Assembly (NCBI GenBank): GCA_003557605.1
Contig: PWNW01000380.1
Location: 1 to 40,907, forward strand
Source: Spirochaetaceae bacterium
GTDB lineage: Bacteria > Spirochaetota > Spirochaetia > PWKH01
Reading direction: 5' to 3'
DNA: 40,907 nucleotides
Positions 30,426-34,716 of the stretch are shown here, in pieces. The translations under genes were made by a program, and so were the position numbers. The notes beneath the pieces were generated by a model, which did no database searches, had not been told where the DNA came from, and saw only the letters and a program-made list of their open reading frames with translations. The stretch's first letter is position 1; each line of letters starts with the position of its first letter.

Positions 30426-31760
30426 CTAGCAGTGTCCTCTGCCTAGATGCTGTACGGCCTTGAGAAACTGAGTTCCCCGATCAAATTCATGGCGAAAGTG
30501 CTCAAATGAACTTGCACCGGGTGACAGCAGTACCGTACCGCCCAGTTTTCGTGCGGATTCAAATGCGCTTTCCACCGCCTCCTCCATGGTATAAAACGGC
30601 CCGTAATAGGGCAATGCAGCCATGTCCGTAATTTTACGGGTAAAGCTTCCCGCCAGCAGATGTACAGAAGATGCCTTGGGAAATATTTCACCGTACAGTA
30701 CTGCGGAGAGTCCCTTATCTGTTCCGCCGGTGATAAGATGTACCGGCGGGGGTACATGGGATACAGCCCTCAGGACCGACTGGGGCACGGTTGAAGCTGA
30801 GTCATTGATCCATCGAATACCCAAAAACGACCCTGCTTCCTCCATCCTGTGGGGAATCGGAGGAAAGGAAGCAAGTCCTTTTTCAATATGCTTCATGTCG
30901 GCGCCTGAAAGAAATGCGCACAGTACTGCTCCCATTGCGGTGTCTTCATACACCCCGAAAGGAAGGTCCGGTGAATTGAACGAGCATAGCATCTCACCCC
31001 TGCGGTCATATATGCTCCATCTTCCTTCGGATGAACTGATGCCTGAGGCAGCTGCCGAGGGGCCGAAATACCAGGTGTTTTCACTGCGGGTAATCCAGGA
31101 AGGATGAATCCCTGAGGCAGGAAGGATGGAGCTCCCGGTGATGCTTGAAAACAGATATGCCTTGTCCTGGATGTAGCCCTCCATGGAAGCATAGCTGTTC
31201 AGATGATCGGGAAACAGAGATGTCAGCAGCGCTGTGCGGGGCAGCACCGTTCGGCCGAGCATCCTCAGGTCCCTGAGCTGCCAGGAAGAAATTTCCAGTA
31301 CCGCTGGATCAGGAGAATCCTCATCCGCGATGTCAAAAAGTGAAATTCCCATATTTCCTGCAATTGAGGCATTGGGAAACGAGGGAAGCAGCAGATGATG
31401 TACAATAGCTGCTGAGGTAGTTTTCCCCTTTGTGCCGGTAACTGCAGTAATCGGCCGTTTGGTGCGTTCCAGGAACCAGGAAAGGTCTGTCTCAATTTGG
31501 GAACAGTACTGAAGCATAGGATTGTCCCAGGCAACAGCGGTATTCTTAATTACCAGGTCAGCATGCTGAAAGTCCTCCAGGCGATGTGTGCCCAGAACTG
31601 AGGTAATATTTGAAAATTCAGACAGTTTAGAGAGAGATTCCTGCAGAACAGATGCATCTCGCAGATCAGTGACCGTAACTGCATGGCCGCGGGAAGCGAA
31701 ATATCGTGCGGCTGAAACACCTCCGCCGTGGAGTCCCAGGCCGAATATAGTAACATTCAT
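30426..31760 (-). CDS. murD: UDP-N-acetylmuramoylalanine--D-glutamate ligase
   Basis: MNVTIFGLGLHGGGVSAARYF marks the Rossmann-like N-domain and VTGTKGKTT the P-loop. The Mur ligase C-domain is present. ATG 31760 was preferred over the adjacent TTG 31763. Confidence 0.83.
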   Translation of the reverse strand: MNVTIFGLGLHGGGVSAARYFASRGHAVTVTDLRDASVLQESLSKLSEFSNITSVLGTHRLEDFQHADLVIKNTAVAWDNPMLQYCSQIETDLSWFLERTKRPITAVTGTKGKTTSAAIVHHLLLPSFPNASIAGNMGISLFDIADEDSPDPAVLEISSWQLRDLRMLGRTVLPRTALLTSLFPDHLNSYASMEGYIQDKAYLFSSITGSSILPASGIHPSWITRSENTWYFGPSAAASGISSSEGRWSIYDRRGEMLCSFNSPDLPFGVYEDTAMGAVLCAFLSGADMKHIEKGLASFPPIPHRMEEAGSFLGIRWINDSASTVPQSVLRAVSHVPPPVHLITGGTDKGLSAVLYGEIFPKASSVHLLAGSFTRKITDMAALPYYGPFYTMEEAVESAFESARKLGGTVLLSPGASSFEHFRHEFDRGTQFLKAVQHLGRGHC

Positions 31761-31814
31761 CAACCAAGAGTCTATCTCCGGCGGGAAAAAATAGCAAGAA
31801 CGTCGGGCAGTTAC

Positions 31815-31843
31815 TTGACCACATCAGCGTATCACGGCATAAT
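31815..31843 (+). promoter_or_regulatory. Candidate sigma70-type promoter for the 30-codon microgene
   Basis: TTGACC (31815-31820), a 17-nt spacer, then CATAAT (31838-31843). Confidence 0.4.
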
Positions 31844-31874
31844 ACAGCAACAAATCATGGTAAGGAGCAGCCCA

Positions 31875-31967
31875 GTGCCTTGTGGAAGAAAGAGAAAACG
31901 ACATAAAATTGCAACCCATAAACGGAAAAAGAAACTGAGAAAGAACCGGCACAAGAAGAAAAAATAG
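31875..31967 (+). CDS. 30-aa highly basic peptide, bS22-like (AURKAIP1/COX24/mS38-like) putative small ribosomal protein
   Basis: AAGGAG (31862-31867) lies 7 nt before GTG 31875. The product is MPCGRKRKRHKIATHKRKKKLRKNRHKKKK. It has its own promoter-like element upstream and a strong terminator hairpin downstream. Confidence 0.6.
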   Translation: MPCGRKRKRHKIATHKRKKKLRKNRHKKKK

Positions 31968-31998
31968 TCCGATTCGCTTACTATCCCGTTTCTCATAG

Positions 31999-32037
31999 AA
32001 AAGACTGTCCTGCTTAAAGCAGACGACAGTCTTTTTC
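31999..32037. terminator. Bidirectional Rho-independent terminator between the microgene and the convergent UDPGP-family gene
   Basis: AAAAGACTGTC (31999-32009) pairs perfectly with GACAGTCTTTT (32025-32035). There is an inner CTGC/GCAG mini-stem, and T-runs are available on both strands. Confidence 0.7.
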
Positions 32038-32041
32038 GGGT

Positions 32042-33580
32042 TCATATCTCCATTGCTTCCGAAGGAAGCGGGGTCCATTGATCTCCTGACAAATTAAACT
32101 GGTATCTGCTTTTCAATGCCTGGTTCAAAGCTCCATGAAGGTGATGAAAAGACCTGAGGTTCTCATCGTTCCCGGGATGCTCTATCAGAGCAGGGGCCAG
32201 GGAGGTAAGGATTTGTTCAATCAGCAGCTTGGCGGCCATAAACCGCTCATTTTTATTTACCCCGATCACCAAGGGGTTGTCCATAATGCCGATAACCTCC
32301 CAGGTAATCTGCTCAATTTGTGAATACCTTCCTGCATCCTTTTCCTGGTTGCTGATTCTCAGCGGAAGGTTTTCAACGATATCATCAAGGCTGCTGCTGA
32401 GATATGAGAGATTGAACAGACCGGTTGCACAGTTAAACAAAATCTGATGGCCTGAATCTATATGGGACTGCACATTCTTCATGTCGATGCCCGGCCCGAT
32501 ATCCATGCAGTCAAGCTTGCCCTCGCTGTTTTTCACCAGGACCCCGCCTTTAACGTCCACAGGGGTCTTGAAGGAAAACTCAAATGAAGCATCAGAACTT
32601 CTGAGGGCCGTCAGGGCCAGGTGGACAGGATGAAGGGTGTTTCCGAGATTGTCGATATTTCCAAGATAGGCAAACTGTTTCCCTTCCCGGTGAAGTTCCC
32701 GGTAGATATCCTTAAGGACGGAAAAATTTTGGCCGTGTCCAGCCGGGAGGGGCAGGGGGGTATGAGATGTTCCCCAGGCCTGGAGAAACAGGTCAACCGG
32801 TTTTCCCGGTTCATAGTATGTGCATGCTGCAGCAAGGGGCTGCACTGCTGAGCGTACGGAAATATCATCGCACCTGAGTGCTTTGAGCAGGTCCTGGTGA
32901 TGGGGATCTTTTCTCACCGATTCTATTTCTTCATTGAGCAGGTCATGGGTGAATGTACTGGTCATCTGAAACAGCGGAATAATACCGAATTCATGAATGG
33001 TTTTTTTGGGAAACCGCTGCTTCATGAGATTCCTGTATCTGAGGGATTCAATCATCAGTGAGCGAATTTTCAGATACATAAATGAAGGACCTGCAGTTCC
33101 CTTAGGATTGATAAACCCTGGAGAAGAACCCTTTGGTTTATTGGAACATAAGGGTACAATGTTCCTGAAAACCTGCTCTGCCTTGGAAAAAAGCGAATCT
33201 CCGTATGCCCGGTTCTTTTTCGAATCAATGTAGCTGGTTGCTGAACCGCCGTTGAGGATTCCATAGGCAGTAACCGGATAGAGGAGAATCCCCAGCATCC
33301 TCAGGTGTTCAGCATCTATGCAGATTCTTCCTTTGTACTCAGGACATGAAAAATCCCTGCGGGTAAACCCGGGAAGGTATGATTCCAGAAAGGAGTCAAA
33401 ATCCTGTTCTCCCACAGTTACAGCATCCAGGTCTGCAGCAGAAATTACCTGTTCTCCGTCAACCGAAGGGAACTTGGCAAATGTGCTGGTCCGCTGTTTT
33501 CGGGTGTTAAATCCCCTGATCAGCCGCATGGTTTCATCTGGATCAATTCCGTGCTGTTTCAGTAATGTTTCTGTATTCAT
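32042..33580 (-). CDS. UDPGP-family (eukaryotic-type UTP-sugar-1-phosphate uridylyltransferase fold) nucleotidyltransferase, divergent
   Basis: In the 512-aa product, GILNGGSATSY corresponds to LNGGLGTSMG, PLFQMTSTFTHD to LMNSFNT, LPAGHGQNF to PPGHGD, YLGNIDNLG to NxDNLG, and VDVKGGVLV to ADVKGGTLI. Confidence 0.7.
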   Translation of the reverse strand: MNTETLLKQHGIDPDETMRLIRGFNTRKQRTSTFAKFPSVDGEQVISAADLDAVTVGEQDFDSFLESYLPGFTRRDFSCPEYKGRICIDAEHLRMLGILLYPVTAYGILNGGSATSYIDSKKNRAYGDSLFSKAEQVFRNIVPLCSNKPKGSSPGFINPKGTAGPSFMYLKIRSLMIESLRYRNLMKQRFPKKTIHEFGIIPLFQMTSTFTHDLLNEEIESVRKDPHHQDLLKALRCDDISVRSAVQPLAAACTYYEPGKPVDLFLQAWGTSHTPLPLPAGHGQNFSVLKDIYRELHREGKQFAYLGNIDNLGNTLHPVHLALTALRSSDASFEFSFKTPVDVKGGVLVKNSEGKLDCMDIGPGIDMKNVQSHIDSGHQILFNCATGLFNLSYLSSSLDDIVENLPLRISNQEKDAGRYSQIEQITWEVIGIMDNPLVIGVNKNERFMAAKLLIEQILTSLAPALIEHPGNDENLRSFHHLHGALNQALKSRYQFNLSGDQWTPLPSEAMEI

Positions 33581-33629: not shown

Positions 33630-33659
33630 TTGACACATCTGCTGATGACATGGTAGGTT
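33630..33659 (+). promoter_or_regulatory. Candidate sigma70-type promoter of the rpsF operon
   Basis: TTGACA (33630-33635), an 18-nt spacer ending in TG, then TAGGTT (33654-33659). Confidence 0.4.
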
Positions 33660-33715
33660 ACGTTGACCTCTTTATCCGCCGTTGTGCGGATCTTAAAGAC
33701 CGTAAGGAGGCTCTG

Positions 33716-34225
33716 ATGAGAACCTACGAAATGACTGTGATCCTTCGTATTGCCGAAGAGGATTTTACGAAGGGAAAGCAGCAGCTCAATGAGCTGCTGG
33801 AACGCAACGGGGTAACCGTTGAAAAACTTGAGGACCAGGGAAATCGGGTCCTTGCCTACCAGATTAACAAAGAGGAAAAGGGACATTATCTCTATTTTGA
33901 GGTGCGCAGTGATCCGTCTGTGATTATTCAGCTTGAACGTGCACTGAAGCTGATGCAGCCTGTACTGAAGTTCCTTATTGTACGCAAGGATGAGCACCAG
34001 CAGAAAGCTCCAAAGAAATCTGTGAAACCTGCTGCGGAAACGGTGCCTGAACCAGAGGCGCCTGCGGCTGAAGCCGCTGAAGAACCTGCAGCTGAACCTG
34101 AGGAAGGAACTGCAGAAGTCCAGGAAGAGGCACCAGCAGAACCAGTTGAAGAGGCTTCCGTTGAGACTGACGAGTCAGCACCTGAGCAGGATCAGCCGGA
34201 AGAAGAAACGAAGACTGAAGCATAG
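33716..34225 (+). CDS. rpsF: 30S ribosomal protein S6 with long acidic Ala/Pro/Glu-rich C-terminal tail
   Basis: AAGGAGG (33704-33710) precedes ATG 33716. MRTYEMTVILR...NRVLAYQI...GHYLYFEV is the S6 core. It is followed by ~70 aa of PEPEAPAAEAAEEPAAEPEEG... Confidence 0.92.
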   Translation: MRTYEMTVILRIAEEDFTKGKQQLNELLERNGVTVEKLEDQGNRVLAYQINKEEKGHYLYFEVRSDPSVIIQLERALKLMQPVLKFLIVRKDEHQQKAPKKSVKPAAETVPEPEAPAAEAAEEPAAEPEEGTAEVQEEAPAEPVEEASVETDESAPEQDQPEEETKTEA

Positions 34226-34242
34226 CAGAAAGGAGACAGGGT

Positions 34243-34716
34243 ATGGCTGTAAGTGATATGAATAATGTCTTCCTGATCGGCCGTCTGACACGAGATGCTG
34301 AGCTCCGATACACCAATTCAGATGTTCCGGTCTGCAAGTTTTCCATTGCCGTCAATAGAAGAAAGAGGTCAGGCGACAGGTGGGAGACGGAGGCGAATTT
34401 TTTTGATGTGGTGCTGTGGGGCAAACTAGGAACAGCCCTTGAACCGTATCTGGAAAAGGGAAAACAGGTCTGTATTACCGGTGAGCTTCGGCAGAACCGC
34501 TGGGAGCAGAACGGTCAAACCAGAAGCAAAGTGGAGATTGTCGCAACCGATCTGCAGCTTCTTGGAGGGAATCCCCCGGGAGGGAGTCCGCCGGGAGAAC
34601 GGAAAAGCAGTTATTCTCGGCAAGGGAATGCACAGAACACAGAAGATACCTTTGACAGTTCCAATGATACCGACTTCGGAGGACCCGGCGGGTTTGAGGA
34701 TGATATACCATTTTAA
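34243..34716 (+). CDS. ssb: Single-stranded DNA-binding protein
   Basis: [18 protein letters not shown] marks the OB fold and [11 protein letters not shown] is present. A Gly/Pro-rich linker leads to the C-terminal acidic tip EDDIPF. Confidence 0.93.

Follow-up and report, generated by a model that had tools for sequence, protein, structure and literature searches.

A small, strongly basic ribosomal protein, bS22, has been described from a spirochaete, from Bacteroidota and from mycobacteria, and the accounts of these proteins provide the frame for the gene reported here. In the spirochaete Borreliella burgdorferi, Sharma et al. (2023) found bS22 to be the product of an unannotated gene initiated with GUG (PMC10618245). 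The protein, 61% of which is K or R, occupies a pocket formed by the 16S rRNA helices h2, h27, h44 and h45 and touches helix H68 of the 23S rRNA (PMC10618245). Tryptic proteomics failed for Borrelia bS22, and the respective gene, bb0822, received no transposon insertions (PMC10618245), the latter being weak evidence of essentiality because the target measures only 93 bp. The survey of Sharma et al. covered Borrelia only, and the authors predicted that bS22 would be found elsewhere (PMC10618245). In the ribosome of P. gingivalis the protein lies between h44 and h45 and contacts H70, making an extra inter-subunit bridge beside the aminoglycoside site (PMC12123416). Deletion of bS22 is tolerated by M. 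smegmatis, where it raises sensitivity to aminoglycosides via a shift of h44, and K16 has been singled out as a key contact of the mycobacterial protein (PMC10081302). According to the literature, actinobacterial bS22, mitochondrial mS38 and eukaryotic eL41 share the same rRNA pocket and the shape of a bent helix (PMC10618245, PMC10081302, PMC12123416). Within the body of literature we searched, no paper joins bS22 with Treponema.

Here we analyse a stretch of 40,907 nucleotides (hereafter the window) and report that its open reading frame (ORF) 31875-31967 is very probably the gene for the small-subunit protein bS22, forming a monocistronic unit in the genome of an uncultured bacterium of the class Spirochaetia. 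The gene is real and ordinary, overlooked by annotation rather than a new kind of thing. The analysis makes two modest additions to what was known, namely how the gene is distributed in the phylum, where some lineages appear to have lost it, and the blindness of the curated bS22 models to this type of sequence. The features of the locus referred to below are as follows.

30426-31763, minus strand: murD, divergent from and located 5' of the bS22 gene, separated from it by a gap of 111 bp (31764-31874)
31815-31820, plus strand: -35-like hexamer TTGACC, putative promoter (consensus scan)
31838-31843, plus strand: -10-like hexamer CATAAT, 17-nt spacer from TTGACC, putative promoter
31862-31867, plus strand: Shine-Dalgarno sequence AAGGAG, followed by 7 nt and then GTG 31875
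31875-31967, plus strand: bS22 coding sequence (identity very probable), GTG start, 30 codons, TAG stop at 31965-31967, peptide MPCGRKRKRHKIATHKRKKKLRKNRHKKKK
31998-32036, both strands: hairpin between an A-tract and a U-tract (folding), probable bidirectional intrinsic terminator
32042-33580, minus strand: UDPGP-family gene (PF01704), 512 aa, convergent to the bS22 gene, stop at 32042
33650-34716: rpsF-ssb, beyond the UDPGP-family gene as seen from the bS22 gene

Similarity of the peptide to ribosomal bS22 chains

The peptide encoded by the ORF consists of 30 amino acids, 18 of them K or R (60%) and 21 when H is counted as well (70%); it thus has the size (~28-31 residues) and the Lys+Arg content (~60%) of the bS22 type of Bacteroidota and Spirochaetota. 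A phmmer search against all PDB chains matched three sequences and no others. Each is the bS22 chain of a 70S structure, and the alignments span the full length with E values from 5.5e-9 to 2.2e-8. They are 7JIL chain 5, from F. johnsoniae and labelled '30S ribosomal protein S22'; 9I5V chain 10, from the P. gingivalis ribosome and labelled 'AURKAIP1/COX24 domain-containing protein'; and 8FMW_V, labelled 'Chain V, 30S ribosomal protein bS22 [Borreliella burgdorferi B31]'. A profile built from 25 spirochaete variants retrieved the same three chains with E values of 3e-14 (8FMW_V), 1.2e-13 (7JIL_5) and 6.8e-12 (9I5V_10), and matched nothing else in the PDB, neither mycobacterial bS22 nor mS38. 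Because polybasic peptides can match through composition alone, we ran 20,000 composition-preserving shuffles of the window peptide. Not one of them reached the in-register identities observed, which amount to 24/28 positions with 8FMW_V, 24/30 with 7JIL_5 and 25/30 with 9I5V_10 (80-86%), the shuffle maximum being 15-17. The similarity to structure-placed bS22 chains is therefore full-length, in register and above composition.

The preliminary description of the locus had looked to PF08213 and bS22 profiles for recognition of the peptide, and here it was disappointed. A scan against Pfam and NCBIfam gave no match to PF08213 (COX24_C/DUF1713) or NF047430 (ribo_bS22) at E <= 10, and PF08213 likewise found no match in the six frames of the window genome. 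As a control, M. smegmatis bS22 (a sequence exact against 5O5J and other entries) scored 46.2 bits with PF08213 and 62.6 bits with NF047430. The structure-proven chains 8FMW_V (Borrelia) and 7JIL_5 (F. johnsoniae) matched neither model, and 9I5V_10 (P. gingivalis) scored 11.8 bits, the cut-off being 23. PF08213 and NF047430 describe only the actinobacterial type and are blind to the type represented here, and their silence cannot decide whether a protein is bS22, because members proven by structure are missed too. As the peptide scores below the curated cut-offs it is not filed in either family, and the name bS22 is taken from the structure-based family.

The relationship to the actinobacterial protein is a separate matter. 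The preliminary description had likened the peptide to bS22 of Bacteroidota and of mycobacteria alike; the first likeness stands (80-83% identity), but for the second we find no similarity above composition, the 9/30 positions (30%) identical between the window peptide and M. smegmatis bS22 being reached by 9,947 of the 20,000 shuffles. An hhalign comparison set the two in the same register (6-25/6-25), weakly so (probability 14%, P 0.0019), and superposed I12/M12, A13/S13, K16/K16, L21/L21, R22/R22 and R25/R25. The link to mS38/COX24 rests on published structural superpositions, because the sequence similarity is not above composition.

As our comparisons find no similarity above composition between the two bS22 types, one might conceive of the Bacteroidota/Spirochaetota bS22 (MPxGxKRK..THKRKK..NRHKK) as a polybasic helix that evolved independently to fill the same h44/h45 pocket and shares no ancestry with actinobacterial bS22, mS38 or eL41. 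The authors of the P. gingivalis study have themselves raised convergence with mS38 and eL41 (PMC12123416), and if the origin were indeed independent, ribosomes would have recruited a peptide to the h44/h45 pocket more than once. We nevertheless regard this as the unlikely alternative, as the equal length and the coinciding non-basic positions 12, 13 and 21 argue for common descent.

Conservation and selection

The bS22 gene is present in a single copy in its own genome (a fragmented metagenome-assembled genome of 384 contigs, 82% complete). Sixty-one related genomes, representing the same class and about 40 families, were searched in six frames, and 60 of them yielded the peptide, with 83-100% identity and one strong match in each; Sediminispirochaeta smaragdinae and Spirochaeta thermophila carry the same gene, the version in the genome of the latter (G009) being VPCGRKRKRKKIAKHKRKKKLRKNRHKKKKR. 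For closer comparison we used 40 bS22 loci extracted from related genomes. Conservation among them starts exactly at the initiation codon, which is GTG in 32 loci and ATG in eight, and extends to ...NRHKK, with unrelated sequence on the 5' side. All 27 of the 27 third codon positions vary, against eight of the 27 second positions, and pairwise pS amounts to 0.93 (near saturation), pN to 0.064 (pN/pS 0.07). It follows from these values and from the codon-position pattern that the amino-acid sequence is what selection preserves. Across the 25 distinct variants, 16 residues never change, and Cys3 is found in 37 of the 40 Spirochaetia loci.

The window gene thus has the attributes of a housekeeping gene, being single-copy, lineage-wide and under purifying selection at the protein level. 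The idea of the preliminary description that a self-contained microgene here encodes a bS22-type protein is borne out by the three full-length matches to bS22 chains together with this very strong purifying selection, and the conservation in relatives that it had anticipated is evident from the 60 positive genomes of the class and from the gulf between pN and pS.

A conserved polybasic peptide may also serve outside the ribosome, as a micro-protein that binds to the nucleoid or to RNA, as a small toxin or as a cationic antimicrobial peptide, and look like bS22 only by composition; a K/R/H content of 70% is common to many nucleic-acid binders, and the curated bS22 HMMs are silent. We consider such a role for the window peptide very improbable. 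Its identity to three structure-placed chains is in register, at a level that none of the shuffles attained, and one of the chains (8FMW, Borrelia) comes from the same class. Toxins and antimicrobial peptides are patchily distributed and evolve fast, in contrast to the low pN seen here, and the gene in question is a single-copy housekeeping gene throughout the phylum and is not accompanied by an antitoxin or immunity partner.

Distribution in Spirochaetota

A profile survey of the phylum Spirochaetota gave a match in 232 of 301 genomes, or in 204 of the 246 of high quality, counts that describe the sample only because related genomes are non-independent samples. Several large families possess bS22 throughout (f50, 45/45; f55, 38/38; f34, 28/28), and a few show no match (f57, 0/4; f59, 0/3; f63, 0/7). 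When five no-match genomes, including a single-contig one that is 100% complete, were searched at E <= 10, only unrelated K-rich frames emerged, and these weak matches were rejected as candidates for divergent bS22. The genomes lacking a match include G075, G078, G083, G063 and G069, and the families f57, f59, f63, f45 and f51. The pattern suggests lineage-specific loss in the no-match families, unless a very different peptide has taken the place of bS22 there. Outside the phylum, one Marinimicrobia genome gave no match to the bS22 profile, a single genome that says little alone.

The preliminary description held that a spirochaete host would extend the known distribution of bS22. The host is indeed a spirochaete, and lineages other than Borrelia have been added; since bS22 of B. 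burgdorferi was already demonstrated in 2023 (PMC10618245), the gain is limited to spirochaete lineages outside Borrelia. The Borrelia finding is thereby extended to most of Spirochaetota, and the understanding of bS22 itself is unchanged.

Extent of the coding sequence and expression signals

In the program-made ORF list the peptide figures solely as the C-terminal part of an ORF of 79 aa (31728..31967), as the preliminary description had noted. One may therefore ask whether the true gene is this ORF, starting from GTG 31728, or a 36-aa ORF starting from ATG 31858, an in-frame codon 17 nt 5' of the GTG, with the 30 codons being a mere truncation. This is almost certainly not the case. On the 5' side of the M/V-P-C-G start the sequences of the 40 relatives are unrelated, vary in length and frequently run into a stop after a few codons, which rules out both longer readings; in many genomes the open frame is just 29-36 aa long. 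Moreover, AAGGAG is positioned for GTG 31875 and would fall inside the longer ORFs, the start codon of the 79-aa ORF would fall within the oppositely oriented murD and precede the conserved promoter, and the homologues with solved structures comprise 28-30 residues and begin at MP. The antisense ORFs 31824..32078 and 31832..31996 were likewise rejected, as the codon-position pattern fits only the 30-codon frame of the plus strand.

The signals around the 30-codon frame proved to be where the preliminary description had placed them: the promoter-like TTGACC-17-CATAAT at 31815-31843, the AAGGAG followed by 7 nt and GTG 31875, and the perfect 11-bp stem 3' of the ORF. The promoter-like site agrees with the consensus at 10/12 positions and is the sole plus-strand site of this quality near the bS22 gene. 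Sites of this kind are no commoner in the region than expected by chance (two found vs 2.1 expected in the consensus scan). The motif cTTGACCa...cgGCATAAT is kept in four loci at the genus or family level, the flanks of which have diverged (cTTGACCa occurs in L009, L018 and L020), and TTGACN-17-[C/G]ATAAT stands upstream of the bS22 gene in about 25 of the 40 loci of the class. We infer that TTGACC-17-CATAAT is the gene's own promoter; transcription would start near 31850 and give a leader of ~25 nt.

AAGGAG or GGAG occurs at an equal distance from the start codon in 38 of the 40 related loci, and the initiation region in the window is predicted by folding to be unstructured (-5.2 kcal/mol, z = +1.2). 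The bS22 genes without a Shine-Dalgarno sequence are those of L027 (G050:C1) and L028 (G014:C1), both from family f11 and both at 2498-2587 on the minus strand; in these loci TTGACA-17/18-TATGAT/TATGGT stops 5 nt short of the ATG, so that, judged by sequence, the bS22 mRNA looks leaderless.

The hairpin at 31998-32036 combines the perfect 11-bp outer stem AAAAGACUGUC/GACAGUCUUUU with a 5-bp inner stem. Its predicted folding energy is -20.7 kcal/mol on the plus strand (z = -4.8; 0/200 shuffles fold as well) and -19.4 kcal/mol on the minus strand (z = -4.3). Lying between the bS22 stop codon and the stop of the convergent gene at 32042, it has the look of a bidirectional terminator, and probably serves as one for the bS22 gene and the UDPGP-family gene in common. 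The same-genus locus L018 has an equivalent hairpin, AAGACTGTCC...GGACAGTCTT, and in about half of the 40 loci hairpins with a T-run occur 3' of the bS22 gene. A promoter motif of its own, a Shine-Dalgarno sequence and downstream hairpins together make up the layout of a small, singly transcribed gene. The window gene would accordingly be expressed as a monocistronic unit of ~185 nt, with a sigma-70-type promoter, a leader of ~25 nt, a strong Shine-Dalgarno sequence, GTG, 30 codons and the shared hairpin terminator.

That the ORF is a chance occurrence or a non-coding or regulatory element (a leader peptide or a small RNA) of the region upstream of murD, as the shortness of the intergenic region and a single promoter match within chance expectation might suggest, is for practical purposes refuted by the comparison of relatives, given that the codon-position pattern and a pN/pS of 0.07 attest to selection on amino acids, that the bS22 gene is found with or without murD nearby, and that an Rfam scan of the locus yielded no match.

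Genomic neighbourhood and host lineage

Of the 111-bp gap that the preliminary description had located after murD, the length was right and the position was not, as the gap lies upstream of the murD start and the two genes are divergent. The gene murD is on the same side of the bS22 gene in about 22 of the 40 loci and is absent from the examined flanks of about 18. In L036 (G016:C34) the order is murD-bS22-rpsF-ssb, with the bS22 gene directly adjoining rpsF-ssb, and the UDPGP-family gene of the window may be an insertion into this older murD-bS22-rpsF arrangement. A UDPGP-family gene convergent to bS22 is also seen in the genus- or family-level relatives L018 and L020.

The nearest named relatives of MetG encoded on the same contig, with 64-68% identity, are from Sediminispirochaeta smaragdinae, Marispirochaeta aestuarii, Spirochaeta thermophila and Spirochaetia metagenome-assembled genomes. 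Taken together with the Borrelia-like genomes of the same class, which have linear chromosomes of ~0.91 Mb, these relatives point to an uncultured lineage of Spirochaetia that is neither Borrelia nor Treponema. The MurD protein is 48-49% identical to its counterparts in the same-genus loci L009 (G001) and L018 (G002), the best relatives of MetG being 74-81% and those of bS22 93% identical; either murD is unusually fast-evolving or the genus is very broad.

Possible role in the ribosome

By analogy with the ribosomes of B. burgdorferi, F. johnsoniae and P. gingivalis, the peptide, with its 60% Lys/Arg, would form a bent helix, which may be buried in the 16S pocket of h2, h27, h44 and h45 next to the decoding centre. 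The C-terminus of the helix would then reach H68/H70 of the 23S rRNA, which would provide a further bridge between the subunits and stabilise h44. The K16 that is invariant among the spirochaete proteins aligns with K16 of M. smegmatis in the best hhalign register, the alignment itself being weak. Incorporation into the ribosome and a structural role there are thus what we would expect of bS22 in the window organism on the strength of these analogies.

An overlooked type in protein databases

A collection of 15 billion proteins contains neither the exact window peptide nor its longer ORF forms, and the versions of bS22 from S. thermophila and of the Treponema type are missing from it as well. 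The absence of the window peptide agrees with the remark of the preliminary description that ORFs of this type escape gene callers. The common 29-aa spirochaete variant is present in the collection, unnamed; its 90%-identity cluster includes some members from Bacteroidota named 'AURKAIP1/COX24 domain-containing protein' or 'hypothetical protein'. Since the curated models see the actinobacterial type only, annotation pipelines cannot name the type in question. A ribosomal protein of about three-quarters of the sampled Spirochaetota genomes goes uncalled, and the value of the present observation is mostly practical: a dedicated profile, for instance one built from alignment A1, would close the gap for Spirochaetota and probably for Bacteroidota.

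Comparison with known bS22 systems

Among the described systems, that of M. smegmatis (MSMEG_0945; 5O5J/5O61 and others) has a bS22 of 33 aa, similar to the window peptide in size and charge. The Bacteroidota proteins of F. johnsoniae (7JIL chain 5) and P. gingivalis (9I5V chain 10, AAQ66340.1) belong to another phylum and have Ser or Asn at position 3, where Spirochaetia have Cys; they consist of 30 aa, exactly like the window protein, and are 80-83% identical to it in register. The 29-aa spirochaete variant even clusters with proteins of Chitinophagaceae at 90% identity.

The bS22 of Borreliella burgdorferi (bb0822, 8FMW_V) comes from the same class as the window gene and shares with it the start MPCGRKRK and the core THKRKKK...RKNRHKK. 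Residues R9, H10, A13 and L21 of the window protein are replaced by L9, K10, S13 and R21 in Borrelia, and the window protein has 30 aa, compared with 31 encoded (28 modelled) in Borrelia. In a Borrelia-like genome (G057, with a 0.91-Mb chromosome) we located the gene at 867494-867580, the published coordinates of bb0822, 867605-867697, being nearby. The surroundings differ, as a span of 2.5 kb around the gene showed no murD in the Borrelia-like loci, and murD adjoins the bS22 gene in the window. In other respects the two genes are closely alike: both start with GUG, the predominant choice in Spirochaetia, both encode a protein with ~60% Lys/Arg, and both had been left unannotated.
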